NCBI GenBank assembly: GCA_023246095.1
Contig: JAHFJA010000003.1
Coordinates: forward strand, 10,782-74,781
Reading direction: 5' to 3'
Origin: a bacterium
Lineage (GTDB): Bacteria > Patescibacteriota > Patescibacteriia > JACQRZ01
DNA: 64,000 bases
Of this stretch, positions 19,974-56,364 are shown piece by piece. The notes below the pieces were generated by a model. The model saw only the letters and a program-made list of their open reading frames with translations. It was not told where the DNA came from and did not search any database. Within the stretch, counting starts at the first letter, position 1; the number at the start of each line of letters is the position of its first letter. A program made the position numbers and the translations under genes.

Positions 19974-21188
19974 TTAGCGTAATATAGAAAGAATTGTCTG
20001 TGTGGCCGAAATGATTTTTTCAACGTCGGCATCTGTATTGTGCGCGCCAAACGACATACGTACAAGCGGAGGAAGATTTTTTACGTGTTGCAAAAAGTAG
20101 TGACAGCAAAAATATCCGCTGCGTACCATGATGTCACTCTTGGAATACATGAGGGCAATCGCATGAGAATCAATGTTTTCGGCGTACCATGCAAACGTGG
20201 ATGAAGGAGATGGGTTGAGCATCACGACGCCCGGCATTTCTTTTAGGCCGTCGCGCGTTGCCGTTGCAAGTTTTAACGCCCCTTCATATCGATCTTCTTC
20301 TGATAACCATTTTAATGCGGCAGAAAATCCTGCAATCGCCGCCCAATCCTGAAGGCCAGGCTCAAGGCGTGTGTACAATTGGTTTTCATCTTGGATAAGA
20401 GTATATGAATCTTTCAAAACATCCGACACCATGCTACCTCCTATAAAAAAGGGAGTGCCATTCTTTAATAACGTTTTTTTGATGACGACAAACCCTAGGC
20501 TGGGCCCGTACATTTTGTGGGATGAACCGAATAGACAATCGAAATCCAGATCAGACAATAGTTTCCGTTGGCCGATCATTGCTTGTGCTGCGTCTACACA
20601 GAGTATTCCTCCTTTTTCGTGGATGTCTGATGCTAGTTCTTTTATTTTGGAAAGAGGTCGTCCGTCTATATTGGAAACGCTATTCATAATGACTAACGCT
20701 TTTTCTAACTGTTCGGGTACATATACTACAGATCCATCATCGTTTCGTGAAAGTACTATTCGTTCAAGTCCTAACCTCTGAGCCAGATTTATCGTGGGGA
20801 GCATGACTGAATTGTGTTCTATTTCGGACGTTATTATTTGTTTGTATCCTTTGAGATCAAGAAGATTCAGAACCATGTTCACTCCATAGGTAGTGTTGAC
20901 AGTAAAAGCAACTTCGTATTCGTTCGACGATTTTCCAAGGTAAGCCAACAACTGTTGTCTGGTGCCATCAACTTTCTTGTCTACTTCTTCACCCCATCGG
21001 TATTTTACGCGTCCACCGCAGGCGTTGTATTTTTGGTAATATTCCATTTCGGCATCAACGATGCTTTGCGGACGAAGTGATTGGCAGGCGGAGTCGATAT
21101 AACAATCTTCTGGGCGAAGATAGGCAAAATCTCCTTTTCGCTCTTGTTTCCCTTTTTGGAAGATATTCATATGTATACATGTAACCAA
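19974..21188 (-). CDS. Class V aminotransferase-fold PLP enzyme (cysteine desulfurase-like)
   Basis: PLP-lysine motif FGSSHKMYGP, class V fold length (404 aa). Confidence 0.65.
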   Translation of the reverse strand: MVTCIHMNIFQKGKQERKGDFAYLRPEDCYIDSACQSLRPQSIVDAEMEYYQKYNACGGRVKYRWGEEVDKKVDGTRQQLLAYLGKSSNEYEVAFTVNTTYGVNMVLNLLDLKGYKQIITSEIEHNSVMLPTINLAQRLGLERIVLSRNDDGSVVYVPEQLEKALVIMNSVSNIDGRPLSKIKELASDIHEKGGILCVDAAQAMIGQRKLLSDLDFDCLFGSSHKMYGPSLGFVVIKKTLLKNGTPFFIGGSMVSDVLKDSYTLIQDENQLYTRLEPGLQDWAAIAGFSAALKWLSEEDRYEGALKLATATRDGLKEMPGVVMLNPSPSSTFAWYAENIDSHAIALMYSKSDIMVRSGYFCCHYFLQHVKNLPPLVRMSFGAHNTDADVEKIISATQTILSILR

Positions 21189-21301
21189 GTATTGGGGGTC
21201 TTGACAAGATAGGCGATGTGCGATAGGGTGGTTTCAAGTACATTTATTGTATTTATTGATCACAATAGTAGGCTCTCGTTGGGAGCAATAGGGGAAAGAA
21301 A

Positions 21302-21721
21302 ATGAGCGAAATCTTACAATTTGCTGATCCAAAAGATCAGTGGAAGTACAATGCCGTTATCTCAGGTATTGTAAAGAAATGTTTGGATGAGAAACAGTTA
21401 TATTCTCTCCATTCTTATGAGCTTATACCTGCTCTATTGAAAGGTAAGGAATCACAGCATTATGAGATGCTGAAGAGCATTCCTGGTTTTGATGAGCAGT
21501 TTGAAATAAACAAGAAACAGCTTGCGTTCATTAAAGCAGCCGGTGGTATGACTGAAAAGATGGCAAGCCAGATGCTTGCTATCCATGAGGTTACTGCACC
21601 TGTATATGCAGCGCTGTTATTTTGCAAGACAAAGTTCATTGATCAGACAGAGAAACAAATTTTTTCTCAGTTTGATGCTTTGTTTGCCGAGGTAGCAGTT
21701 TTAATAAAAAAGACTTCCTAA
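21302..21721 (+). CDS. Hypothetical protein (139 aa)
   Basis: ORF followed by a perfect terminator. Confidence 0.4.
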   Translation: MSEILQFADPKDQWKYNAVISGIVKKCLDEKQLYSLHSYELIPALLKGKESQHYEMLKSIPGFDEQFEINKKQLAFIKAAGGMTEKMASQMLAIHEVTAPVYAALLFCKTKFIDQTEKQIFSQFDALFAEVAVLIKKTS

Positions 21722-21740
21722 CTCAGGCAATAATTTTTCA

Positions 21741-21779
21741 AATAGCCTCTTAGATAATTTTTAAGAGGCTATTTTATTA
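21741..21779 (+). terminator. Rho-independent terminator AATAGCCTCTTAgataatttttTAAGAGGCTATT
   Basis: 12 bp perfect stem plus T-run. Confidence 0.75.
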
Positions 21780-21803
21780 CCTATTTTTTTGTATGTTTGG
21801 GGG

Positions 21804-21832
21804 TTGACAATATAGATAATATGTGCTAATAT
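21804..21832 (+). promoter_or_regulatory. Sigma70-like promoter TTGACA-17-TAATAT with extended TGc
   Basis: TTGACA 21804-21809; gtgcTAATAT 21823-21832. Confidence 0.55.
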
Positions 21833-21899
21833 TTGGCCTAAATAAAGGCGAATTAATGAACCTTTATTAAATTATTGTTACGCAAGGAGACGCGAAACA

Positions 21900-22201
21900 T
21901 GCCAAAGAAATTTGTCGTGGAAACGGCAGGTTATATAGACAATTTTAGGAATGCCATCACATCAGATGATCCTTTGCTATTACATATCGCAGGAGCAGAC
22001 ATGGCTTCTATGACAGTATTATTGGGGATTTCAGAAATGAAAAAAGTTGATGTCGGCGTTCCGCAGTTCGAGATCAAAGGAGTTTTACTTGCTTTAACAA
22101 AGGGTTTGGCGTCCAGTGCGGTAAGGATTCCTGTTACAGGGTTTCTGAATTACACTGATCGTACAAAACCCGGCGTTGGAACTCTTAAAGAAAGAGCATA
22201 A
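21900..22201 (+). CDS. Hypothetical protein (100 aa)
   Basis: SD AGGAGA upstream of ATG 21900. Confidence 0.45.
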
Positions 22202-22263
22202 GAATTTTAAAAAAAGGACTCTTAATGATTCAGAGTTCTTTTTTATTTTAGCCAAATAATTAT

Positions 22264-23310
22264 TTAATACTCATTTTCGATGTCTTTATATTTTGATCCA
22301 GTATATGTATCGGCTAGTTTTCTATAACGTTCATAAATTGTTTCATCAGTATTCTCAGTTTGGGCAAAATTATTTTCAATATTGGAGATATTTTGAAAAC
22401 AGAATGGATCACCTCTTTCTTGCATTTTGTAACTGATTTGGAGTGCAAGATCCCTGGGGGAATGCGCTAAAATACTTTCTTTTGTGTATGAAGAAGAAAC
22501 GGTTCCTAGTTCAAGGAGTTTTGTATAAAAACGTGTCGCGAGCGCATCACCTTTTTGGTACGCCTTATCTAAGGCAAGTGCAAGGAAAAATAGGGGCATT
22601 CCTTTGTAGTCCCATTGCCATTCTTTGATTCCGCTCATATCCCCATGGCCGTACATCATCTTTAATTCTTCTGATAGTAATACTGCTTTCCATACTAATT
22701 TTGGGTGAAGTCCTTCTTCTTCGAATGTATAACTACGCCAACTATCAGACTCGTATTGTGTGGGTTGAACTAATTTTTTTTCTAAATCATTTAACGCCTC
22801 AGGGGTTGTAATCAGTTCATCATCCAGCAACAAAACTTCATTTAGGACAAAATCTCGCGTAGAAAAATATTCCGCCAACGATTCAATTCTAACACCATGT
22901 CCGCGCGCATAATCATCCTGCATGTATTTTTTGGCCAGCTCATCTCTAATGGCAGGGGTTGTGTCTGGGTGAGCATCTGTTATCGCAACAATATCGATGT
23001 CTCGAGGGGGCATTACATCATGACCTAGTGCTTGAAGAGCAGCATTACGAGCAACGCCCCCCGAAAACCCATAACCTTTTGGTAGTGTGGCGGGTAATTT
23101 CTCTGTGAAGGGAATATGAACAAGAGAATAGGATTCATTTGTACTGGCTTCTTTGTCAGGACTTGTACGTATTATTTTTTCTACACGAAATCCACCTCCT
23201 CTGTTCTGTAATTTTTTTAATACTTCTTCATTGAGATTCAAAGATGAAGTCGGTTCGATTTCATGGTTATCTTTTTTTACATTTTCTGACACTGCCTTGT
23301 ACTTTTCCAT
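22264..23310 (-). CDS. Hypothetical protein with a Pol-beta-superfamily nucleotidyltransferase-like motif
   Basis: YGFSGGVARNAALQALGHDVMPPRDIDIVAI fits the hG[GS]...[DE]h[DE]h NTase signature; remainder unrecognised. Confidence 0.35.
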   Translation of the reverse strand: MEKYKAVSENVKKDNHEIEPTSSLNLNEEVLKKLQNRGGGFRVEKIIRTSPDKEASTNESYSLVHIPFTEKLPATLPKGYGFSGGVARNAALQALGHDVMPPRDIDIVAITDAHPDTTPAIRDELAKKYMQDDYARGHGVRIESLAEYFSTRDFVLNEVLLLDDELITTPEALNDLEKKLVQPTQYESDSWRSYTFEEEGLHPKLVWKAVLLSEELKMMYGHGDMSGIKEWQWDYKGMPLFFLALALDKAYQKGDALATRFYTKLLELGTVSSSYTKESILAHSPRDLALQISYKMQERGDPFCFQNISNIENNFAQTENTDETIYERYRKLADTYTGSKYKDIENEY

Positions 23311-23386
23311 AGCATCTTCTTTAGAGGTATATCCTTTGCATAAATATTGATATCATCTTTTTCGAGGGAATTATTTGACGGGATAG

Positions 23387-23563
23387 TGTACAGTATTAGC
23401 CGTAGTATTTTCCGACCTTGTAGCCAGCCCAGATACCAAGTATTCCACCGATTGTTGAAAGAAGGATGGAAGAAAAAGAAAAAATACCCGCACCCCACAG
23501 GCTAGGAATCAGACTACCAATCGTTGAACCTATAAAGAGACCTATCCAAATGAATGATTTCAT
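23387..23563 (-). CDS. GlsB/YeaQ/YmgE-family small membrane protein (58 aa)
   Basis: Hand-translated MKSFIWIGLFIGSTIGSLIPSLWGAGIFSFSSILLSTIGGILGIWAGYKVGKYYG, GxxxG-rich 2 TM; not in the ORF track because it is under 60 aa. Confidence 0.5.
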
Positions 23564-23613
23564 AGTAATGCTAGTGTAGCATATATAAAATTTTTTTTTA
23601 AAGTATCATGCTA

Positions 23614-23650
23614 CAAAAAAGCCCTCACTTTCGGGAGGGCTCTATTGGAG
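23614..23650 (-). repeat. Copy A of the tRNA-Gly downstream terminator repeat (CAAAAAAGCCCTC..GAGGGCTCT.TTGGAG)
   Basis: 7 bp perfect hairpin plus A6 (a T-run on the minus strand); also present at 24840 (attached to tRNA-Gly) and 49798. Confidence 0.6.
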
Positions 23651-23788
23651 TTGATTGGTGGACGACATTGAAAGCAATTGGGCGCGAATAGGTATCCCTT
23701 GACTTTTGGTAAAAATAATATAGAGTGGGGACAAACGGCTAGCTCGTTGAGCTCGTTTACAAATTATTGTTATTGGAGGAAACGGATT

Positions 23789-24154
23789 ATGAATGCAGAC
23801 GTCAAAGAGCAGAGAGTGTTTGTATTAGATCAAAGTGAGCTATCAAATAATACATATGCCGTATGGAATGTGATAATTTCGTATACCGTGAGGCTTATGT
23901 CAGATGGTAGCTTAGTCCAGGTTATTTCTTTGGTTCAGAAAGGAATTTCCGGGCGTCTGGAAGGTGAAGATGTTTGGCGTATTGGTCAATCGACAAAAAA
24001 CTACGCAGACCTGCTTAATTTTGATAGAAATGACGCAGCGAAGTTATTTGAGATGTGGTACACATCTAGGGGGAGAAATAAAGCGGCAGTGGCCGAGTGG
24101 CTACACAGCAGGTTTAGTTCCACTAGAAGTATATTTAAAAAATTATTGTTTTAA
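23789..24154 (+). CDS. Hypothetical protein (121 aa)
   Basis: SD GGAGG before ATG 23789. Confidence 0.45.
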   Translation: MNADVKEQRVFVLDQSELSNNTYAVWNVIISYTVRLMSDGSLVQVISLVQKGISGRLEGEDVWRIGQSTKNYADLLNFDRNDAAKLFEMWYTSRGRNKAAVAEWLHSRFSSTRSIFKKLLF

Positions 24155-24165
24155 GGAGGTAAGGG

Positions 24166-24591
24166 ATGAGTGAGGTTATTCAGTATTTTATTGGGGGGCA
24201 GTATTGTGCGGCACATGGTTCCATTGGTGATACTCTAAAGCAAAGTCGTGTTTTAGAGAATTGTATAGATCATTCAATTGAGATCATTCCACCAAACGAT
24301 ATTCAGTCTATAGACAAACTCAGAAAGTGTTTGAAAGACGTGGAAAAGGAATTTTTAGACCTAGACTGTGATAATGCCCCGGCAGACTACGATCATGCAA
24401 AAAGAAATGTTGCTCGACTAAAAATGGGTATTATTACGGAAATCCTTCTGACTGGAAAGGTAAATACAGCTAATTACAAAATACATGCGAGGGAAATAAA
24501 GTTACACCACAACTATACGGATTATCAATATGATTGTGCTTGCAATGAGATTGTAGGTTTATGGGAAGAAGGGGGTAAAGAGGATGAGTAA
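24166..24591 (+). CDS. Hypothetical protein (141 aa)
   Basis: SD AAGGAGG before ATG 24166. Confidence 0.45.
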   Translation: MSEVIQYFIGGQYCAAHGSIGDTLKQSRVLENCIDHSIEIIPPNDIQSIDKLRKCLKDVEKEFLDLDCDNAPADYDHAKRNVARLKMGIITEILLTGKVNTANYKIHAREIKLHHNYTDYQYDCACNEIVGLWEEGGKEDE

Positions 24592-24839
24592 GTTTGAATA
24601 TGGGGATCTTGATATATCTGTATTGGTTAATCTTTCTGAATGCCGAAGCCTTAGTAAATAGTAGACTTTGTATTATTTCTCTTAAACCTAGTGCTAAAGA
24701 TTACGATATAGAACTTGATGGGCCGGAAATGGACGGGTTACATATAGAGTAATTTAAATTGTATGTTTGGGTTTATTTGCGAGGTAGTTAATTACTGCCT
24801 CTTTTTTTATTTTTCCTAATTTCTCATCCCTCTATTATC

Positions 24840-24871
24840 AAAAAAGCCCTCCTTTTTGGGAGAGCTCTCTT
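24840..24871 (-). terminator. Terminator of tRNA-Gly (copy B of the repeat)
   Basis: GAGAGCTCTCCCaaaaaGGAGGGCTTTTTTG on the minus strand immediately 3' of the tRNA. Confidence 0.6.
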
Positions 24872-24946
24872 GGAGCGGGTAACGGGAATCGGACCCGTAT
24901 CTCGACCTTGGCAAGGTCATATAATAACCATTATACGATACCCGCG
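24872..24946 (-). tRNA. tRNA-Gly (anticodon GCC)
   Basis: Hand-folded: acceptor GCGGGTA/TACCCGC, anticodon loop TTGCCAA, T-arm with CGATTCC, CCA encoded. Confidence 0.8.
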
Positions 24947-24948
24947 TA

Positions 24949-25419
24949 CTAGTAGTGGTACGTCTTTTTCCTCATGATGCAAAATGCACGATACAACTGT
25001 TCATGCAACAATACTCTAGCAATCTGGTGGGTAACCGTCAAGGGAGAAAGAGACCATGTAATATCAGCCTTGGAGGTGATCTCATCTGATATCCCTAAGG
25101 GGCCGCCGATTACAAAAGTTAGTGGTGAACCGATATCGACTTTGCTCTCAAGAAGGTGAGAAAATTTTTCAGAGGTATATTCTTTTCCATGAACATCGAG
25201 CGCAACAAGAACACCCTGCTGAGGGATGTGTTTCAGAATGAGGCTTGCTTCTTTTTTTAATACTTCAGGTTTTGCATTCGCGTGAGAAAACGGCACTTCT
25301 TTAATCTCTTTAACCTCAACCGACGCCCATTGAGAAAGGCGTTTAGTATATTCTTTTTCAGCATCTTTCCAATAGCTCTCTTTCAGAGATCCGACCGATA
25401 TAATAGTGATTGAATGCAT
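24949..25419 (-). CDS. rlmH: 23S rRNA (pseudouridine1915-N3)-methyltransferase RlmH (SPOUT)
   Basis: 156 aa; C-terminal VIGGPLGIS...SLSPLTVTHQIARVLLHEQLYRAF typical of RlmH/YbeA. Confidence 0.8.
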   Translation of the reverse strand: MHSITIISVGSLKESYWKDAEKEYTKRLSQWASVEVKEIKEVPFSHANAKPEVLKKEASLILKHIPQQGVLVALDVHGKEYTSEKFSHLLESKVDIGSPLTFVIGGPLGISDEITSKADITWSLSPLTVTHQIARVLLHEQLYRAFCIMRKKTYHY

Positions 25420-25421
25420 AA

Positions 25422-28400
25422 TTATTTTTTGGGTGACCTCCGGCGTATATACATACTGCTTGCGAGGAATACTATACTAAAGAGTGAGACAACGCCAATT
25501 TGAATTAAGGGAATCGGTTTGTCTGATGCAGTGAGTGTCAATGTAGAGTTGTCATTTTTTTGGGGAGTGGATGGGGTCTGGGGGTTGGCGATGTTTGTTG
25601 TTGTGAGGATGAGATCATCTTTCGTGCGGGGGAGGATTCGATAGCCTGTGGATGTTTGACTGACAATGCCCGTTGCTTGTAGAGTACTCGCTTTGTCGAT
25701 TTTCATTCTGGTGATACCAGTTGAGGTTTTGACATACACTCGCGCTTCATCTGTTCCATCATCGATGTAAATACTGGGCCATTGGGTCTTTACCACCTCT
25801 CCTTTGATTGTTACCAGACTGCCTTCGTACTCTTCACCGACATCAGTGATTGAAATGGGGTGAGCGATGGGAGGCGGGCCATGACTTATAAATCGGATTG
25901 TATTATCCTTACCAACCTTGATTCTCGCTTCATCACTGATTTGTGATCGGACACCAGTAAGCTGTACAGTATCACCGATGAGTAACTTTGGCATCTGGTT
26001 TTTTGAAACATATATTTGCATACCCGAGCCGGCCAAGTAGAAAATGTTTGCACCGAGCGAACCTGGGGTGGACGAGACTACCCCTTTTACACTTACCGAC
26101 GTGTCCAAAGGAAGGTCGCGCGCCTGAGCGAGAGTAGTTTGGATTATATCTGGCGTCGATTTTTTGCTGGTTGCCTTTGATGCGGTCGTTTTTGAGGAAG
26201 CGGTGACTGTATTCGATTTGGAAAGGGTGCTTTGTGGTCCTGAAAGTTCGATGTCCGACATTGGGGATGCATTACTTGAATTTTGCTTGCCAGAAGTAAC
26301 GCTGGTTGACCAAACAAAATCTCCTTCTTTTGTGCGCATGAGACTTTGGGCTTCGGGAGCGTCTTCATACGATACAACATCCATGAAATCACCTTGGCTG
26401 TTATACAGAGTGACAGTGTCAGCGGCATTGCGTAATTGAATTTTATTGGCCGTAGGAGTTAAAACTAACAATGCTCCGGGGTCGATGCGGGATCCGGCAG
26501 GAAAGGTATATGATTTTTTCCCAAGCTGATAGGTGACACGCCAGCCAGACACATCGATGAAAACATTGGAAATATTTGTCAGCTCGATGAATTCATTGGT
26601 GTCCTTTCCTTTGGGGTTTGGCGCGATTTCATTGATAACGACTGGTGAAATACCCGCTATGCTTTGGGGGATTTCTTCAGGGGGTAGCTTGCTCATGGGT
26701 TGTGGTGAAACTGTTTGAGAAGCTGCTTCGATAACGATCGTCTTAGTCGCTTTCTTTTCATTTGTCGGATCTTTGACGGTGAGGCTTACTTTGTATCGAC
26801 CTGCCGTCGAATAATGATGACTGAGTTGCACGCTATCTCCTTGTTGTCCGTCGCCAAAATCCCAATGATAGGTCAGCGGATCTTGTTCAGCGTCTGTCGT
26901 ATCTGACGCATCGAACATTAACTCTTCTAAAATGGCACCACTGTTGGGCATTTCCATATCAGGATCAGGTGGTTCATTGGCAAGTGTTTTGATGTTTGCC
27001 ACGCCGGGGGTGGGAGTAGTAGTCCAGCCGTTTTCTTGATCGCTGAAAAAAGCATATGAATGTCCTTGGATTGTTTTTTCTTTATACGCGAGTGTTGCAT
27101 TCGGTTTTTCACCGTTGGGTTGATAGAGCGTTACTGAATCGCCTCCTGTGTTTTTAAGTGCAAGACCAGTTACAGGGCGTTCAAAAATAAAATAGGATTT
27201 TGCTTTGATTGTTGTATCTTTAAGTTTCTTGTTATCGACGATGTATTTGCGACCCGCTGCGTTTACGATTTCCCAACCGAGAAGGTCGATATCTTTATCT
27301 CCTTTATTGTAGAGTTCAATAAATTCTGTTTTGGAATCAACGCCGATCGGGTCAGGGAGAAGCTCTGAAATGATTATATCTTTAATAAATGGCGCGGTAG
27401 CATCATCTGCTGGGATTGCGGGGTCGATAATGACATTTGAACTTCCTTTTGTCGGTTTGGTAGTGACTTGAAAATCAAATGCATTGTTGTAACTATTGTG
27501 GCCATCTTTGAGACGTGCAGTTGAAGATGGGTCAGCGGCTTTTGGTGCATTATTGAGGGTGTTGCCGTCATCCCAGTTACCAAAAGACACGTCGTCAACG
27601 GTGATGCCGTTGGGATCTTTGAGAATAATGAGATCACCCGCGTTATTCAGTTTCCCTTTCGGATTTTCAACAATAAAAAAGCGATTGTTTGCGCTGGATC
27701 CAATTTTCCCCGAAAGATTTGTTTTTGTGTTTGATCCATCTTCTATCGACCATCCCGTAAGGTCGATATCTTTTATTTGAGGATTATACAATTCTATCCA
27801 TTCGACATCGTCGTCGGTAGGGTCTGAGACAAATTCGTTTATGTACATATCCCCTCGCGCGTAATAGGTCGCTTGTGGTTGTGCGGGTACAGCGGGAGGT
27901 GTCGTTGGGGGTACGACGACAGGAGGAGGGTCTGCTGGGGGTGGATCAACGACTATGGGTGGCGATATGGGAGCACTTGCCGCATTGATCGTGCCGATGG
28001 TATTGCCGCTCGCATGTTCTTTCCAGTTGGTGGCAGTATAATCTGTTTTTGTCGCGTCGACGCGTTCCAATGAATGAGTCGGAGCCGCGATGTATGCAAA
28101 CTGTTCGATGAATGCCCCTGTGTTATCTTTCAATGCGATTGATTCTCCTGCTTCCGTGAGCGTTGTCCACGCGCTGTCGATAATGGTACCTGTGAATGAT
28201 GGATAATCAGCAGCAGTGTTTGCAGCGACATCGGCGATGATCGCATATTCACCAGGCTCAATAGTCATGTCTCCTTGGAAAGCGGAGAGTCCATGATTGG
28301 TGTCAGCTTCAAAAAATTTCCACCCGGTCATATCAACGGGTGCAGTACCTTTATTATATATTTCAAACCATTCGTGATCGGAATTTTCCGATGCACCGAT

Positions 28401-28502
28401 TTCGTTAATGACTATATCGGTTGTCGCTGCTCGGACAGGAGTAATAGTGATAGGTGAACTTATAAAAACAATGAGAAGTGCGAACGTAAAAGTTCGAGAC
28501 AT
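25422..28502 (-). CDS. Giant secreted, C-terminally membrane-anchored surface protein with 4 lamin-tail domains (LTD) and a PKD domain
   Basis: Signal peptide; four LTD signatures (INEI...EWFEIYNKG; EWIELYNPQ; EFIELYNKGD; EFIELTNIS); PKD motif WDFGDG...YSTAGRYKVSLTVKD; Pro-rich linker; C-terminal TM plus RRRSPKK. Confidence 0.7.
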   Translation of the reverse strand: MSRTFTFALLIVFISSPITITPVRAATTDIVINEIGASENSDHEWFEIYNKGTAPVDMTGWKFFEADTNHGLSAFQGDMTIEPGEYAIIADVAANTAADYPSFTGTIIDSAWTTLTEAGESIALKDNTGAFIEQFAYIAAPTHSLERVDATKTDYTATNWKEHASGNTIGTINAASAPISPPIVVDPPPADPPPVVVPPTTPPAVPAQPQATYYARGDMYINEFVSDPTDDDVEWIELYNPQIKDIDLTGWSIEDGSNTKTNLSGKIGSSANNRFFIVENPKGKLNNAGDLIILKDPNGITVDDVSFGNWDDGNTLNNAPKAADPSSTARLKDGHNSYNNAFDFQVTTKPTKGSSNVIIDPAIPADDATAPFIKDIIISELLPDPIGVDSKTEFIELYNKGDKDIDLLGWEIVNAAGRKYIVDNKKLKDTTIKAKSYFIFERPVTGLALKNTGGDSVTLYQPNGEKPNATLAYKEKTIQGHSYAFFSDQENGWTTTPTPGVANIKTLANEPPDPDMEMPNSGAILEELMFDASDTTDAEQDPLTYHWDFGDGQQGDSVQLSHHYSTAGRYKVSLTVKDPTNEKKATKTIVIEAASQTVSPQPMSKLPPEEIPQSIAGISPVVINEIAPNPKGKDTNEFIELTNISNVFIDVSGWRVTYQLGKKSYTFPAGSRIDPGALLVLTPTANKIQLRNAADTVTLYNSQGDFMDVVSYEDAPEAQSLMRTKEGDFVWSTSVTSGKQNSSNASPMSDIELSGPQSTLSKSNTVTASSKTTASKATSKKSTPDIIQTTLAQARDLPLDTSVSVKGVVSSTPGSLGANIFYLAGSGMQIYVSKNQMPKLLIGDTVQLTGVRSQISDEARIKVGKDNTIRFISHGPPPIAHPISITDVGEEYEGSLVTIKGEVVKTQWPSIYIDDGTDEARVYVKTSTGITRMKIDKASTLQATGIVSQTSTGYRILPRTKDDLILTTTNIANPQTPSTPQKNDNSTLTLTASDKPIPLIQIGVVSLFSIVFLASSMYIRRRSPKK

Positions 28503-40921: not shown

Positions 40922-41506
40922 CTATAGAAACATCAACAGTTGAAACGTTGGTGTCTGTGAAAATCCGTCGGTCATACCTATTTGGTGCAAGTACTCAATT
41001 CCGATAGATCCGAACTGTGTGTTGAATATATAACGCAGAGTAGGACCTATTGCTGGGTGCAGATTTTCTCCTAATACGAATGAACCCGCAAACAGATTAG
41101 GCAATATTTCATAACGTATGCTGCCACTGTAAAAATATGTAGGTTTTGAGATGCCGATTACATCCATTTCTAACGAGTAAGATATCTTGTCTGTTAGGGC
41201 ACCCCACGTAGAAATACTTACCATCGGCTGGTGTTCACCGACGGGGTAGTTCATTGAAATTCCTGGTTGGATAGCAATTTTTTGTCCTTTTAAGTACTCA
41301 TAAGAAATTCCTCCATAAATGAAAAATTGATTTACGCTTTTTGTAGTTTCCAGTGAGTTGAACACATTAAATTCCAAGGAAAAGTTTGAATCACCCAATT
41401 TTTTTTCTACATTCAGTACATTAAAGAGCCAAACGTCTGCCTGGGCTGGGCTTGCCAGCAATAATACCAGCACTCCTACTGACAACACACTGATTAATTT
41501 TTTCAT
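40922..41506 (-). CDS. Secreted beta-rich hypothetical protein (signal peptide, ends in aromatic residue)
   Basis: Start at Met 41506 with SD AAGGAGA; signal peptide MKKLISVLSVGVLVLLLASPAQA; alternating hydrophobic pattern. Confidence 0.45.
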   Translation of the reverse strand: MKKLISVLSVGVLVLLLASPAQADVWLFNVLNVEKKLGDSNFSLEFNVFNSLETTKSVNQFFIYGGISYEYLKGQKIAIQPGISMNYPVGEHQPMVSISTWGALTDKISYSLEMDVIGISKPTYFYSGSIRYEILPNLFAGSFVLGENLHPAIGPTLRYIFNTQFGSIGIEYLHQIGMTDGFSQTPTFQLLMFL

Positions 41507-41704
41507 TTTAATGATCTCCTTTTTTACAATATATATTTTTGAAATGGTTTTGTTGTAGGACATCAAATTTCCATTTCGAAGGGAGTATATCAGTTTCAGA
41601 AGATTTTGTCAATAGTTTGTTTACTAATATATAAATAGTCTCAAAACTTGATACTTTCTTGGAAATGTGTTATCCTATATATATCGTAATCTAGCGCTGT
41701 CACT

Positions 41705-42538
41705 ATGCTCTCCTACGACCCCTTACACCCTATACAAAGCGGAATCATACAATTGGTTGGAAAAGAGCCGGGGATTGAGGTACCTACTATTTTGGCTAAA
41801 TTAAAGACAGAATTCGGCGTTATGGTTTCAAAACAGAATCTTTATAAAATAATCGGGAAGCTTATTGATCATCAAGTGCTCGTTAAAAATAGACAGGCAG
41901 TTACTCTCCATCAGCCGTGGCTTGAAAACATGTATACTTTTATATCTAATGCCAAAGAGGTGTATCAAAATAAGGAATACATACAGGATTTTCAACTCGA
42001 AGAAGGTGAACAAAAGGTGTTTATGGCAGATTCGCTTGCTTTGTTGGATGGGACATGGGGGCACATCATGGGAAGTGTGTGTGATATAGCGCATTCTCAT
42101 CATTATTTTGTCTATCATCCGCACCCCTACTATCGGTTTGGTATGGCCGATATAGAACGGCGATACTGGCAGAGCATCTCCGACAAAGGCATTGCAATAC
42201 ATTTGTTGTATGGTAACAAAACATATCTTGATATGTATTCAAGTCAGGCAACGCCGATGCCGGGAACTCAGGATGTGTTGACCGACACACCACCGTTTCC
42301 TAAGGAGGGGTATTTTTTAAATGTGTATGATGATTATATAACAGAGGTGTATATCACTGACGAGATCGCGAGCAGATTTAAGTATTTTTATGATCAAGTT
42401 ACCGATATTTCACAGTTTGATATAGAACATTTTAATGATATTTTTCGAATGAAGGCACAAACGAAGTTTATTTTTAGACGATCAAAAAAAGATGCAGAAT
42501 TGTTAAAAGAAAAGTTTAGGAAGTATTTTTCAATATAG
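41705..42538 (+). CDS. Hypothetical protein with N-terminal winged-helix-like region
   Basis: N-terminal about 70 aa resemble a wHTH (LAKLKTEFGVMVSKQNLYKIIGKLIDHQVLV). Confidence 0.4.
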   Translation: MLSYDPLHPIQSGIIQLVGKEPGIEVPTILAKLKTEFGVMVSKQNLYKIIGKLIDHQVLVKNRQAVTLHQPWLENMYTFISNAKEVYQNKEYIQDFQLEEGEQKVFMADSLALLDGTWGHIMGSVCDIAHSHHYFVYHPHPYYRFGMADIERRYWQSISDKGIAIHLLYGNKTYLDMYSSQATPMPGTQDVLTDTPPFPKEGYFLNVYDDYITEVYITDEIASRFKYFYDQVTDISQFDIEHFNDIFRMKAQTKFIFRRSKKDAELLKEKFRKYFSI

Positions 42539-42613
42539 TATTAGACTATTTCTGCCCAGGGTGTACGCTATAATTACGTAATATGGAATTGAAAATCAAA
42601 AAAGGAGGATGTT

Positions 42614-42874
42614 ATGGACATTGATTATTCAAAAATCATGATTATTGCAGGAGATCAACAAGTACTATCGCATGCTACTGATAAAGATATTACATGGGTC
42701 AAACGATCAGAATGTGATCTTGCGGATGAAATTGCGATGAGTAAATTGTTGGCTCGACACACACCAACGTTGCTGATAGTGATAGGTTTGGAGACGCTTC
42801 CCTATAAAGCGGGTGGATTATTGGGAATCGAAAGACTTTGCAAAGAACGCAAAACCACGTATTTGATTCATTAA
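42614..42874 (+). CDS. Hypothetical protein (86 aa)
   Basis: SD AAAGGAGG before ATG. Confidence 0.4.
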   Translation: MDIDYSKIMIIAGDQQVLSHATDKDITWVKRSECDLADEIAMSKLLARHTPTLLIVIGLETLPYKAGGLLGIERLCKERKTTYLIH

Positions 42875-43019
42875 AGGTTATCGTACCTAATAATGAGTAT
42901 TGTCTTACATAATGTAAGACTTTTATTTTTTTGCCATATTCGGCAGTAAAACCATTGACAAGGAGTGGAAATACGGTATAGTCGGAAGTGTTATATAGTA
43001 GTCACAAGGAGTTCTTTTT

Positions 43020-47857: not shown

Positions 47858-47883
47858 GGGTCACGTGGCGGAGGAAGTAGGAG
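47858..47883 (+). repeat. Short repeat GGGTCACGTGGCGGAGGAAGTAGGAG (copy of the degenerate tRNA-His 3'-end-like segment also at 48287-48312)
   Basis: About 24 of 27 identity with 48287-48313. Confidence 0.5.
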
Positions 47884-47929: not shown

Positions 47930-48145
47930 ATGAAATTTCCGCTTCACGAAACCTGGAAACGATCTCTTGTTAAGGCAATTACCTACAGGGTGTTCATTAT
48001 TATTCTGGATTTTTTAACTATATGGTTGATTACCAAAAGAGCTGAGTTCGCAATTGGATTTGTCGTTATAAGTAACATTTATACTACCATCGCATATTTT
48101 TTTCATGAAAGGTTCTGGAACCGAGTTCCTTGGGGGAAAAAATAA
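47930..48145 (+). CDS. DUF2061-family small membrane protein
   Basis: 71 aa; SLVKAITYRV...YFFHERFWNRVPWG pattern. Confidence 0.55.
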   Translation: MKFPLHETWKRSLVKAITYRVFIIILDFLTIWLITKRAEFAIGFVVISNIYTTIAYFFHERFWNRVPWGKK

Positions 48146-48223
48146 TCTGTTTATGCGTACCCAAACCTAAATACACCGTTTCTCTTTTTATCAGTATTCT
48201 CATTTGGTTCAAAGTTTATGGAT

Positions 48224-48315
48224 GTTAGAACTAAAATTAATATCTAGCCAAAACAAAAATTGAACTGTTTCCAATTCAATTCCTGTTGGGGTCACGTGGT
48301 GAAGGAAGTGGGGAC
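48224..48315 (+). repeat. Direct repeat copy R2: GTTAGAAC...AAAATTGAACTGTTTCCAATTCAATTC..GTTGGGGTCACG plus a decayed tRNA-His 3'-end-like tail
   Basis: Aligns over about 78 bp with 49862-49935 (the flank plus 3' end of tRNA-His). Confidence 0.6.
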
Positions 48316-48336
48316 TTTAGTTATTTCTAATTGCTG

Positions 48337-49134
48337 TTACAACGTTTCCAAAAAAGCATCTTTGATCGGTGGTTTGTAAGTACTTACTTTAGAAATATTC
48401 CATACCACTTCAAATTGTGCGCGCATCAGTTCTGCAAAGTCTTTGCTTTGGACAATGAATCCAAATGTTTCTTTTCTCGATGAGATGAACGCGACCTTAT
48501 TTTCATAGATTGTGTGTCCCATGTTCCAGGTCATGTTCAGCGGTGCAATACGAAGGTCTCGCAGGTGTTTCTTCCCAATCCCGAGAAAAGGAAATTGGTC
48601 TATGTTCACTGTTTTGTCTTTTGGCCAGATGACGCGCAAATGATTTTTGTTTTTGATCCGTTTGCGATTAAAGTTTTCTAGGTAGTGCGTTCCTAACACT
48701 GCGATCATTTCTTCCATCGGCCAAATCGAGAGGATCTGTGTATGATCGTACCAATACAGGTCATTCAAAATTTTGCGCACTTGTTCGGTCCCTCTGAAAT
48801 GTCTAATCTTTGGTTCATTATTTTTTTCCTGCTGGATGGGATGGTATCTGTCTATGTTTTTACTCTGTATTTCAAGGCTCTCAATCTTATTTTTCATGAG
48901 TTGTTTTAATTGTCCTATGTCATTGATTTGAAATAGTTTTTTGCTGTCTTCATCCTGTTCGATGATGAGGCCATTTTCAAGAAGAATATTCAGATGGTCA
49001 TAAATCGAAGAGCGTGGCATGCTGATTGTTTCGGCAAGTTGGCGCGCTGAACTGCTTCCTCGCTCAAGAAGGCGAGTATATACGAGGGTCGTATTTTCAG
49101 AAAAGCCTAATTCTTTGAGGATTGCTTCTATCAT
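48337..49134 (-). CDS. TrmB-family transcriptional regulator
   Basis: N-terminal wHTH (TRLLERGSSSARQLAETISMPRSSIYDHLNILLENGLI) plus TrmB-like C-terminal domain. Confidence 0.55.
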   Translation of the reverse strand: MIEAILKELGFSENTTLVYTRLLERGSSSARQLAETISMPRSSIYDHLNILLENGLIIEQDEDSKKLFQINDIGQLKQLMKNKIESLEIQSKNIDRYHPIQQEKNNEPKIRHFRGTEQVRKILNDLYWYDHTQILSIWPMEEMIAVLGTHYLENFNRKRIKNKNHLRVIWPKDKTVNIDQFPFLGIGKKHLRDLRIAPLNMTWNMGHTIYENKVAFISSRKETFGFIVQSKDFAELMRAQFEVVWNISKVSTYKPPIKDAFLETL

Positions 49135-49232
49135 AGATATTTGTCGATATTCGACGACATATTGACATAATAGGGTTTTCGTACCATGATGTCAAACGGT
49201 AATATGAATGATTAAGTAAAGGAGGAATAGAA

Positions 49233-49748
49233 ATGGTTATTGTGAATGTATTGATTAATAACCCTGCATTTTGGCTGTTAATTGGTGTATTGGTACATTT
49301 TCACGTGCGCAAAATTCCTCGTGTGAAAAATCTTAGGAAATATATTAGAACGGCAGACTTTGTATATTGGCCAGGTATCGAGAGGCACAGAATGGAATAC
49401 TTTCAACTACTTGTAAGTGCCATATGCGCTGTTATGTTATCTGCTTCTCTGGGGGCGATTATGGATGATACTCGTTTTATGTATCTTGAAAATTGGAATG
49501 ATATACTTCATGTGGCAAGGGCTTTGTATTTACTGTGCATATTTCCGGGACTTACAATTCCTATATTTGCATCCCTTGCTTCGATAGTGCAGACTATTGA
49601 GTATATTTTTAAAATATACCGCCATATCAAAATGGAGGATTATGATCACGAAAGTTATATTTTTGAAGGTGGGCTGATTGTACGATTCTTGGAAATGATC
49701 CCGATACTATCATTTATTGTCATATTGGTGAGTGGAAGAAAATTATAA
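49233..49748 (+). CDS. Hypothetical membrane protein (171 aa)
   Basis: SD AAGGAGG; 4-5 TM. Confidence 0.4.
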   Translation: MVIVNVLINNPAFWLLIGVLVHFHVRKIPRVKNLRKYIRTADFVYWPGIERHRMEYFQLLVSAICAVMLSASLGAIMDDTRFMYLENWNDILHVARALYLLCIFPGLTIPIFASLASIVQTIEYIFKIYRHIKMEDYDHESYIFEGGLIVRFLEMIPILSFIVILVSGRKL

Positions 49749-49797
49749 CTATAAACATTGGACTAAGATAACATCAAGGTCCTTTTATTTTTGTGTA

Positions 49798-49835
49798 TCA
49801 AAAAATCCCTCTTTCGAGAGACTCTTTGGAGCGAG
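49798..49835 (-). repeat. Copy C (decayed) of the tRNA-Gly downstream terminator repeat
   Basis: CAAAAAATCCCTCTTTCGAGAGACTCTTTGGAGCGAG versus 24840 CAAAAAAGCCCTCCTTTTTGGGAGAGCTCTCTTGGAGCGGG. Confidence 0.5.
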
Positions 49836-49861
49836 ATATGAATATATAAAAATTTTATCTA

Positions 49862-49924
49862 GTTAGAACCGCTTTTGATATTTAACCAAAATAAAAATCG
49901 AACTGTTTCCAGTTCAATTCGCGT
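49862..49924 (+). repeat. Direct repeat copy R3 (flank immediately 3' of tRNA-His)
   Basis: Matches 48224-48290. Confidence 0.6.
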
Positions 49925-49999
49925 TGGGGTGACCGACGAGGATCGAACTCGCGATGGGAGGACCACAACCTCCTGTGTTACCACTACACCACGGCCACC
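49925..49999 (-). tRNA. tRNA-His (anticodon GTG) with encoded G-1
   Basis: Hand-folded: G-1 plus acceptor GTGGCCG, anticodon arm GGAGG-TTGTGGT-CCTCC, T-loop TTCGATC, discriminator C plus CCA. Confidence 0.8.
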
Positions 50000-55262: not shown

Positions 55263-55337
55263 TGGTGCGCCCTGCAGGAATCGAACCTACATAACAGGCT
55301 TAGAAGTCCTGTGTTCTATCCATTGAACTAAGGGCGC
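55263..55337 (-). tRNA. tRNA-Arg (anticodon TCT)
   Basis: Hand-folded: acceptor GCGCCCT/AGGGCGC, anticodon loop CTTCTAA, T-loop TTCGATT, CCA encoded. Confidence 0.75.
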
Positions 55338-55380: not shown

Positions 55381-56364
55381 CTACTTCTTTCTTTTCTTCC
55401 CATGAAACGCTTTGTGAACGTCGCGCAATTGCTGGTTGGTAATATGAGTGTAGATTTGCGTGGTGGTGATACTAGAGTGCCCCAAGAGTGCTTGTACTGA
55501 TCGGATGTCAGCTCCGTTGATCAAAAGATCAGTCGCAAAGGTGTGGCGCATGACATGGGGGGTAATATGTTTTGTAATCCCGGCGGCGTGGGAATATTTT
55601 TGTACGAGACGCTGCATGCTGCGAGGAGTGAGGTGAAGATTGTCATCATCTTCATCGAGAGCTTTGCCGGTAAACGCGCGATCATGGCGGATGAAAAGTG
55701 GGTTGAATACGTCAGTGCGCAATGCAAGATAGTCTCGGATACGATCTTTTGCATTTTTTGAAAGAAATACGATGCGATATTTGTCGCCTTTTCCTTTTAC
55801 GGTGAATTCATCCTTGGCTAAATTGATGCTACCACGACGCAAGGCGGCTAACTCGGACACGCGAAGCCCCGATGAAAAAAATAACTCTAAGATTGCCGCA
55901 TCACGCTGTTTGGTAATCTCTGGTTCATGCGTACGAGCGGGTGCTTGAAGAAACCGTTCAAGGTCGTCTCCTTCCATGAAGTCAACCGTTCGCTGAGGCA
56001 TTTTTGCGAGTTCTATTTTTTCTGGAGCCAGGGTGCGAATGTCGCGCTTTGCGAGATACTTTAAAAATGACCGCACTGCGATGAGGTGATAATTTTGCGT
56101 ATTCTTTTTCAGTGGTGTATCCCCGTTGAGTCGATTGAGCCAGAGGCGAAATGCGCGAACAGTATCTAAACTAATTTGTGCCGGTGCGGTAACTTTATTT
56201 TCTCGCGCCCACTTTTCAAAACGGTTGAGATAAAACGCGTAATTCTCAATCGTGTTTGGTGAGCGGTTTTTTTCAATCTCAATATGTTCGAGATAATCGC
56301 GGATCAATTTTTTGAGAAGTGATGGGGGAGGCATAGTCCTTTTATTGTACGACACTATTGACAA
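55381..56364 (-). CDS. Tyrosine site-specific recombinase, XerC/XerD family
   Basis: N-terminal SAM-like core-binding domain; C-terminal catalytic region ...HVMRHTFATDLLINGADIRSVQALLGHSSITTTQIYTHI (R..H..R..Y). Confidence 0.85.
   Translation of the reverse strand: MSIVSYNKRTMPPPSLLKKLIRDYLEHIEIEKNRSPNTIENYAFYLNRFEKWARENKVTAPAQISLDTVRAFRLWLNRLNGDTPLKKNTQNYHLIAVRSFLKYLAKRDIRTLAPEKIELAKMPQRTVDFMEGDDLERFLQAPARTHEPEITKQRDAAILELFFSSGLRVSELAALRRGSINLAKDEFTVKGKGDKYRIVFLSKNAKDRIRDYLALRTDVFNPLFIRHDRAFTGKALDEDDDNLHLTPRSMQRLVQKYSHAAGITKHITPHVMRHTFATDLLINGADIRSVQALLGHSSITTTQIYTHITNQQLRDVHKAFHGKKRKK

Follow-up and report, generated by a model that had tools for sequence, protein, structure and literature searches.

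Direct repeats of a tRNA-Gly 3' end and terminator beside orphan genes in a Patescibacteria genome: possible scars of insertion at tRNA genes

Repeats at the tRNA-Gly locus and the DNA they bracket

In contig JAHFJA010000003.1, from a candidate-phyla-radiation (Patescibacteria) genome, the intrinsic terminator of a glycine tRNA gene, tRNA-Gly(GCC), recurs on the 3' side of the gene along with the final bases of the tRNA, and the two copies bracket a small islet of genes without recognizable relatives. Candidate-phyla-radiation bacteria have tiny genomes; to our knowledge, descriptions of mobile elements from them are few, and lineage-specific gene gain is poorly documented. The DNA analysed here, called the window throughout, is 64 kb long and is the part of the host genome that could be searched; the coordinates of its features are collected in Table 1. 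An earlier note, made from the sequence of the window alone, had read the arrangement as the footprint of an element that integrated at the tRNA gene and may then have decayed. The results below enlarge the region concerned, add a second case at tRNA-His, and allow this reading to be weighed against several others.

On the minus strand, the end of tRNA-Gly, ...CCCGCTCCA, continues directly into AGAGAGCTCTCCCAAAAAGGAGGGCTTTTTTGAT, which forms a hairpin followed by T6. This is copy B, whose first 5 nucleotides (nt) are the tRNA's own end; its hairpin has a folding energy of -20.8 kcal/mol (z = -4.2), and it is 92% identical to the terminator that follows tRNA-Gly in the related contig L026. Copy A folds into a similar hairpin of -18.1 kcal/mol. 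Copies A and B are the longest direct repeat within 21100-25000, with 32 of 37 nt identical (86%), and the degenerate pattern AAAAAGCCCTCNNTTNNGGGAGNGCTCT matched exactly these two sites and nothing in 100 shuffles of the window. Consistent with this result, an nhmmer search with tRNA-Gly and its flank retrieved copy A at E = 1.2e-4. The similarity takes in the leader CTCCAA.AGAG, which is not part of the hairpin. Of the tRNA body, copy A has no more than CTCCA (5 nt), similarity further upstream being about 40%, and the TTGGAGCG that the earlier note had implied for all copies is not present in it. The Rfam tRNA model, run at permissive thresholds at copy A and at the copies near tRNA-His described below, reported no partial tRNA and gave terminator-like noise only. 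No minus-strand gene lies upstream of copy A for it to terminate, and the segments beyond A and beyond B have no mutual similarity.

The loop of copy A, GAAAG, is that of L026, and copy B has the loop AAAAA. In a three-way comparison, private changes number three in A, two in B and one in L026. These private changes and the L026-type loop indicate that A is not a very recent copy of B; the comparison is compatible with A being the older version, which may have been displaced from the tRNA.

The layout of copy A, islet and copy B is not an artefact of one assembly or contig, because contig L001, from the independent Logan assembly used for comparison, is 100% identical to window 20204-24888 and covers all three. 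L001, which is from the same strain, ends at window 24888, inside tRNA-Gly, and the contig of a relative, L028, ends 34 nt past tRNA-Gly. Such breaks may reflect branching of the assembly graph where a conserved tRNA stands beside variable DNA.

The genes of the islet between A and B are convergent to tRNA-Gly. The two genes with strong Shine-Dalgarno sequences and the plus-strand terminator of their own that the earlier note had described are present, and a third small open reading frame (ORF) can be added to them. That the two larger genes are orphans was borne out by every search made. Among 5.8 billion protein clusters, the 121- and 141-aa proteins match only themselves, and they belong to no Pfam, PHROG (none below E = 0.02) or PADLOC family. 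Searches of 50,697 phage records by tblastn returned nothing, such that the affinity to phages or plasmids that the earlier note had proposed checking was not found in PHROG or in these records. Single-sequence AlphaFold models of the two proteins are of low confidence (predicted local distance difference test, pLDDT, of 63-65), and Foldseek comparison of the models with the PDB gave no match below E = 0.8.

Comparison with relatives shows that this islet is part of a larger variable region. The order rlmH to tRNA-Gly(GCC) is kept in all seven relatives examined, and in all seven, including L027 and four that are more distant, the DNA 3' of tRNA-Gly differs. Homology to the window stops at 24839 in L025 and at 24833 in L026, placing the break exactly at the end of the terminator; in L026 the terminator is followed by an unrelated secreted-protein gene. 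The most informative relative is L025, which has about 73-75% nucleotide identity to the window. By blastn, L025 63-1637 corresponds to window 26444-24839, comprising a gene for a protein with lamin-tail domains (LTD), rlmH, tRNA-Gly and the terminator, and L025 1715-9151 corresponds to window 21134-13193, from an aminotransferase gene onward and fully collinear. The T-run of the tRNA-Gly terminator in L025 is followed immediately by the TTGACA of the aminotransferase promoter, the window counterpart of which lies at about 21171-21215. Thus, 78 nt in L025 stand against about 3.6 kb in the window (21216-24838), a species-level unoccupied site for a 3.6-kb island. Since L025 lacks this whole segment, the A-B islet makes up the third nearest the tRNA of a larger island, which copy A subdivides. 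The earlier note had proposed looking for an empty site that lacks the segment between A and B; in the one available, that of L025, the missing segment is the 3.6 kb of 21216-24838 and not the 1.2-kb A-B interval. The G+C content (GC) of 21216-24838 is 0.376 compared to 0.417 for the whole window, and only 1.2% of segments of the same length are as low.

The distal part of the island holds three ORFs of 100 aa or more and a possible fourth, shorter one (Table 1). The 348-aa protein has 485 homologues, with no Pfam, NCBIfam or PDB relative and no named family. Its closest homologue (55%) is encoded at L032 6001-7002, directly after a gene for a CCA-adding enzyme, at a different genomic position, which indicates that the 348-aa gene has moved between positions. 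The related genome to which this homologue belongs and the window have a four-gene cluster in common. A motif in the 348-aa ORF, GFSGG...DIDIV, is by eye reminiscent of Pol-beta-type nucleotidyltransferases, and the protein looks like a member of an uncharacterized family, whose role is possibly tRNA-related.

Three short similarities within the island were also seen. About 60 nt inside its distal border, 21272-21295 reads CCCCTATTGCTCCCAACGAGAGCC on the minus strand and is loosely like the tRNA-Gly end plus the leader of the terminator; it was rejected as a distal repeat because its alignment is unconvincing, and it could be a very decayed oldest scar, though the likeness is statistically not significant. 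The leaders of the 100-aa and 121-aa genes (21869-21892 and 23761-23784) share AAATTATTGTTA....AGGAG.ACG over 24 nt at 79%, which could be a common expression signal or chance and is too weak to interpret. The same applies to a 13-nt repeat, TTGTATGTTTGGG, at 21789 and 24759.

Table 1. Features of the tRNA-Gly and tRNA-His regions, in window coordinates.
Feature	Position	Strand	Basis or remark
Distal part of the island	21216-23613	.	absent from L025; GC 0.374
139-aa ORF	21302-21721	+	distal part of island
100-aa ORF	21899-22201	+	distal part of island
348-aa ORF	22264-23310	-	distal part of island
Possible 55-aa membrane ORF	23396-23563	-	distal part of island
Copy A, putatively displaced last 5 nt of tRNA-Gly and terminator	23614-23650	-	reads CTCCAATAGAGCCCTCCCGAAAGTGAGGGCTTTTTTG
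Proximal islet, 1.19 kb	23651-24838	+	GC 0.377
Promoter-like site	23699-23726	+	proximal islet
121-aa ORF	23789-24154	+	AGGAGG-type ribosome-binding site
141-aa ORF	24166-24591	+	AGGAGG-type ribosome-binding site
50-aa ORF	24600-24752	+	called in two public assemblies
Terminator of islet genes	24781-24808	+	
Copy B, working intrinsic terminator of tRNA-Gly	24839-24875	-	reads CTCCAAGAGAGCTCTCCCAAAAAGGAGGGCTTTTTTG
tRNA-Gly(GCC), encoded CCA end	24871-24945	-	ARAGORN and Rfam
rlmH	24949-25419		tRNA-Gly directly 3' of it
His copy 3, 21-nt arm ACTTCCTCCGCCACGTGACCC	47858-47878	-	alignment
Small DUF2061 gene	47930-48145		between the two 21-nt arms
His copy 2, last ~10 nt of tRNA-His, terminator and ~35 nt of flank	48221-48296	-	nhmmer E = 6.9e-9
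TrmB-like regulator	48337-49134	-	Pfam; tRNA-His islet
171-aa membrane ORF	49233-49748	+	tRNA-His islet
Copy C, tRNA-Gly-type 3' end (CTCGCTCCA) and terminator	49797-49835	-	within tRNA-His islet; profile E = 1.3e-4
His copy 1, tRNA-His own terminator	49893-49917	-	hairpin scan and folding
tRNA-His(GTG)	49925-49998	-	ARAGORN and Rfam

The tRNA-His locus and the third copy of the tRNA-Gly terminator

A scan of the window for hairpins followed by a T-run, which yielded 54 terminator-like sites, revealed that the terminator of tRNA-His also recurs. The block common to His copies 1 and 2 starts some 10 nt short of the tRNA end (GT.ACCCCA), runs through the terminator and extends to GTTCTAAC. His copy 2 lies 1.6 kb 3' of tRNA-His, and the intervening islet (48297-49892) has a GC of 0.372; both tRNA-linked regions fall in the lowest 1-3% of GC among segments of the same length. 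Just 5' of His copy 2, at 48289-48309, is a 21-nt arm, ACTTCCTTCACCACGTGACCC, which recurs with two changes as His copy 3. Two matches to this arm were found against none expected, and it is not part of tRNA-His. A profile made from His copies 1 and 2 did not retrieve His copy 3. The arm (ACTTCCTYCRCCACGTGACCC) contains the palindrome CACGTG, and its two occurrences are 431 nt apart.

Two of the four tRNA genes in the window, those for Gly and His, thus have such a footprint, and the genes for tRNA-Leu and tRNA-Arg do not. The case for the feature at tRNA-Gly is stronger than a single repeat could make it, because the same footprint is present at tRNA-His. Between the Gly and His islets no paralogy was found beyond copy C.

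Copy C, which lies inside the 1.6-kb tRNA-His islet, is the third occurrence of the tRNA-Gly terminator. Its full sequence is CTCGCTCCAAAGAGTCTCTCGAAAGAGGGATTTTTTGATAC, its hairpin has a folding energy of -16.5 kcal/mol, and, as in A and B, the stable G+C hairpin is followed by T6 on the minus strand. It includes 9 nt of the tRNA acceptor end and the tail TTTTTTGATAC. The earlier note had correctly described it as reading TTGGAGCGAG where copy B reads TTGGAGCGGG, and its spacing of some 90 bp from tRNA-His is 89 nt. The identity of copy C with the genuine tRNA-Gly 3' flanks (copy B, L026 and L025) is 74-78%, compared to 59-92% for those flanks among themselves; furthermore, its CTCGC variant is that of the L025 acceptor stem, and its TTTTTTGATAC tail is that of L027. 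Taken together, this identity and the L025-like and L027-like details indicate that copy C is a genuine tRNA-Gly-type 3' flank at another locus.

The specificity of the repeat was examined with a profile built from the three genuine tRNA-Gly 3' flanks, B, L026 and L025. Over the window the profile ranked B first, then A (E = 1.3e-7) and C (E = 1.3e-4), with every other site at E > 0.1. Over 386 kb of fetched loci it found genuine tRNA-Gly ends only, plus copy A in the same-strain contig. These searches, with the repeat and shuffle analyses, confirm the recurrence of the tRNA-Gly terminator at copy A and, more weakly, at copy C, as the earlier note had proposed. The occurrence of the same repeat at many terminators, which that note had named as evidence that would count against its proposal, was seen neither in the window nor in the 386 kb. 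Since matches to the profile are restricted to tRNA-Gly flanks, A and C, the repeat does not belong to a generic terminator family in the sequence available, and a generic terminator or repetitive extragenic palindrome (REP)-like hairpin family was rejected, there being three copies among about 54 hairpins in the window and no extras in the 386 kb.

Explanations for the repeats

The repeats are, on balance and with somewhat better than even confidence, the decayed scars left as one piece of DNA after another, each with a "3' end plus terminator" of its own, inserted at the 3' ends of tRNA-Gly and tRNA-His. In this scheme each incoming DNA would carry a replacement module made up of the last tRNA bases and a terminator. 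After insertion, the tRNA would stay intact and still terminate properly (copy B; His copy 1), and the former 3' end and terminator would come to lie beyond the insert (copy A; His copy 2). The repeats would extend past the tRNA because an insert that replaces the 3' end of a tRNA must also bring a terminator. Repeated insertions would build up a small low-GC island, of about 3.6 kb at tRNA-Gly, in which the 1.2-kb A-B islet would have been added last. Copy C would have arrived, as a tRNA-Gly-type module, with the DNA that now stands at tRNA-His. The long similarity of His copies 1 and 2 would reflect the likeness of two related inserts, and the arm that His copies 2 and 3 have in common would belong to the insert side of the far junction. 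With no recombinase gene left in the islets, these would be immobile remnants, or movable only in trans.

A number of facts fit serial insertion. On the minus strand, in direct orientation and 3' of their own tRNA lie copy A as well as His copies 2 and 3. The break in synteny coincides with the terminator, the low-GC cargo is made up largely of ORFs that lack a homologue or a named family, and the pattern is replicated at tRNA-His. The presence of the 21-nt arm in His copies 2 and 3 and its absence from the tRNA are as expected if related elements inserted twice. The repeats, their orientation and restriction to tRNA flanks, the absence of the island from L025, the low GC and the orphan cargo were observed directly; from them we infer a site-specific or Campbell-type joining, the order in which the insertions took place, and the import of B rather than A. 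The earlier proposal of a decayed element integrated at a tRNA gene accordingly stands as far as the direct 3'-side repeats, the low-GC orphan DNA and the second case at tRNA-His are concerned. It needs amending in that only 5 nt of the tRNA is repeated, the island is larger, and mobility and an integrase mechanism would have to be supposed.

Several observations weigh against insertion. Only 5 nt (A) or about 10 nt (His copy 2) of the tRNA is involved, the repeat being mostly terminator and flank. Counted back from the end of the tRNA, the similarity sets in at 5 nt for A, 9 nt for C and about 10 nt for His copy 2, and none of these points is a known crossover site. Copy A differs from B and L026 by 11-14%, and the exact blocks that A and B have in common do not exceed 13 nt. 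The bracketed intervals, 1.19 kb between A and B and about 1.6 kb between His copies 1 and 2, are below the size filters used for islands. Alignment and profile searches found no significant distal repeat of the 3.6-kb island beside the aminotransferase gene. Copy C is 25 kb from tRNA-Gly and on its 5' side, and so departs from the same-tRNA, 3'-side orientation of the other copies; at that side and distance it cannot bound an island at this tRNA-Gly. Neither islet contains an integrase or mobility gene as judged by Pfam and by a phmmer search with XerD, which agrees with what the earlier note had said of the A-B islet, and the same searches revealed no recombinase-like ORF elsewhere in the 3.6-kb island. 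The Gly and His repeat patterns were not found in IMG/VR viral contigs. Furthermore, each of the eight flanking proteins tested stands alone at 90% clustering, and the lineage has thus effectively been sampled once; with no close strain in the collections, the 1.2-kb compartment is without an empty site of its own. Finally, gain in the lineage of the window is not formally separable from loss in L025.

Some of these same observations would suit an islet between tRNA-Gly and the aminotransferase gene that is swapped by homologous recombination in the conserved flanks, with the duplicated terminators as by-products, for example of a donor's tRNA flank, and with no site-specific element. Such exchange would account for the different DNA 3' of tRNA-Gly in every relative beside a collinear 5' side, for the lack of an integrase, for a repeat that is mostly flank with little tRNA, and for the resemblance of copy C to the tRNA-Gly flank of another lineage. 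Replacement by a double crossover, however, creates no direct repeats, and the same duplication of end plus terminator is found at a second tRNA, with a common arm that is not tRNA. A single crossover of a circle would give repeats, but that is integration and merges with the insertion reading. We consider exchange by homologous recombination unlikely. Local duplication or reuse of the tRNA-Gly terminator, by slippage, illegitimate recombination or a tandem duplication since diverged, with ORFs that arose or decayed in place, we judge rather improbable. The repeat is indeed short and essentially a terminator, mobility genes are absent, and cargo without relatives is what young or spurious genes would look like. 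Yet copy A has no minus-strand gene to terminate, the dissimilar stretches after A and B retain no trace of a tandem duplication, and the low GC and the absence from L025 point to acquired DNA. The tRNA-His case and copy C would, moreover, demand three independent accidents, all at tRNA 3' flanks.

Chance or convergent likeness of intrinsic terminators, all of which combine an A-tract, a G+C stem and a T-tract, would leave the copies historically unconnected with the tRNA; it is highly improbable and is largely refuted within the available sequence. Terminators are constrained in sequence, and copy C is a weak match when the window's own tRNA flank is the query: as the sole nhmmer query, that flank gave no match to it at E < 10. 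Against this stand the absence of matches in shuffled windows, profile E-values of the order of 1e-7 and 1e-4 when other hairpins exceed 0.1, the lack of extra copies in 386 kb of other loci, and a likeness that takes in the CTCCAA.AGAG leader and, in C, the 9-nt acceptor end and TTTTTTGATAC tail. A further possibility, which we regard as very unlikely, is that the insertions are aimed at the dyad-symmetric terminator hairpin and not at the tRNA body, with integrase-less mini-cassettes of candidate-phyla-radiation bacteria recombining within tRNA terminators. As part of the same very unlikely proposal, the cassettes would supply a new terminator, such that tRNA expression survives, and would depend for movement on a host recombinase acting in trans, for which the single Xer-like protein, encoded at 55381-56364, is an example; the 13-nt exact block of A and B, consisting of the T-run and the 3' arm of the stem, would be the crossover.

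Known systems and other features of the window

Islands integrated at tRNA genes are delimited by a regenerated tRNA gene and a displaced fragment in the same orientation, with the 3' fragment downstream (Islander, PMC4383910). The features described here resemble such islands in the intact tRNA, the direct repeat on its 3' side, the lineage-specific low-GC cargo and the unoccupied locus in a relative (PMC4383910), and repeats of 37-76 nt are inside the 15-221 bp reported in a Klebsiella survey (bioRxiv 10.1101/2020.11.02.365908). The differences are that no tyrosine integrase is present, the repeat takes in only 5-10 nt of the tRNA and is 86% identical and not perfect, and the intervals span 1.2 and 1.6 kb. 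Known crossovers are in the anticodon loop, the T loop or the T/acceptor junction (PMC4383910), and the nearest described class to the present repeats is the "asymmetric 3' end" sublocation (bioRxiv 10.1101/2020.11.02.365908). Surveys set minimum island lengths of 2-3.5 kb (PMC4383910; bioRxiv 10.1101/2020.11.02.365908); the bracketed intervals are shorter than 2 kb, and the whole island of 3.6 kb has no distal repeat.

The closest functional analogy may be with cis-mobilizable elements (CIMEs), which have lost integration and transfer genes and kept attL and attR (ICEberg 2.0, PMC6323972). As in a CIME, cargo lies between direct repeats at a tRNA without recombination or transfer genes, and arrays formed by accretion would be expected. 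Unlike CIMEs, which have been described mainly in Firmicutes and next to conjugative elements (PMC6323972), the repeats here have no cognate integrative element or integrase in the window, in the 386 kb from relatives or in IMG/VR viral contigs, and with 86% identity and a longest exact block of 13 nt their competence for recombination is doubtful. Tycheposon islands offer another comparison. In Prochlorococcus, incoming elements at tRNA-linked islands push older ones inward, with partial tRNAs and degenerate remnants as the result (bioRxiv 10.1101/2020.12.28.424599). A streamlined genome and tRNA-adjacent islands are common to both cases, and so would be successive insertions and scattered partial tRNA copies or remnants; however, tycheposons carry tyrosine recombinases and replication modules, none of which is found here, their partial tRNAs are substantial gene fragments, and the host is of another phylum. 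In contrast to a prophage or phage satellite, the bracketed DNA holds no phage-related genes by PHROG and phage tblastn searches. The copies are like ordinary Rho-independent terminators in having a stable G+C hairpin and T6, and copy B evidently serves tRNA-Gly; they are unlike them in that A and C share leader and tail with tRNA-Gly flanks beyond what a terminator needs, and A has no gene to serve.

The arrangement is probably an instance of a well-known type of scar in a poorly sampled phylum, with one unusual trait, namely that the repeat is centred on the terminator and not on the tRNA. The pattern suggests that tRNA 3' flanks are sites of gene acquisition in this lineage, as they are in better-studied bacteria. 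Its practical value is modest: repeats of a tRNA end plus terminator are a searchable signature for similar islets, or their active parents, in other metagenome-assembled genomes, and several orphan genes can be flagged as probable accessory cargo.

Elsewhere in the window, a coarse phmmer screen of all ORFs of at least 70 aa with an approximate XerD query had a single match, at 55381-56364 (minus strand), outside the islets. The product is a Xer-type tyrosine recombinase that scores below the equivalog cut-offs for XerC and XerD. Its gene sits 43 nt 5' of tRNA-Arg(TCT) (55263-55337, minus strand), where no repeat of a tRNA-Arg fragment was found. A third low-GC stretch, at 41000-43000 (GC 0.36-0.37), lies 1-3 kb beyond tRNA-Leu(TAA) and ruvB and has two ORFs without a Pfam match, 40922-41566 (minus strand) and 41705-42538 (plus strand); no tRNA-Leu fragment was detected there.

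The product of rlmH, the gene next to tRNA-Gly, gives some measure of how distant the available relatives are. The best species representatives belong to Candidatus Magasanikbacteria, at 45-49% identity, and a protein of Candidatus Uhrbacteria matches at 53%. Scans of GTDB genomes and JGI metagenomes found relatives only at 51% RlmH identity or less, and homologues that are 72-80% identical led to three useful contigs, with L026 at 80%. Upstream of rlmH, window 25422-28502 (minus strand) encodes the LTD protein, which is 1026 aa long and has four lamin-tail domains and a PKD domain; this arrangement is kept in L025, L026 and L028.

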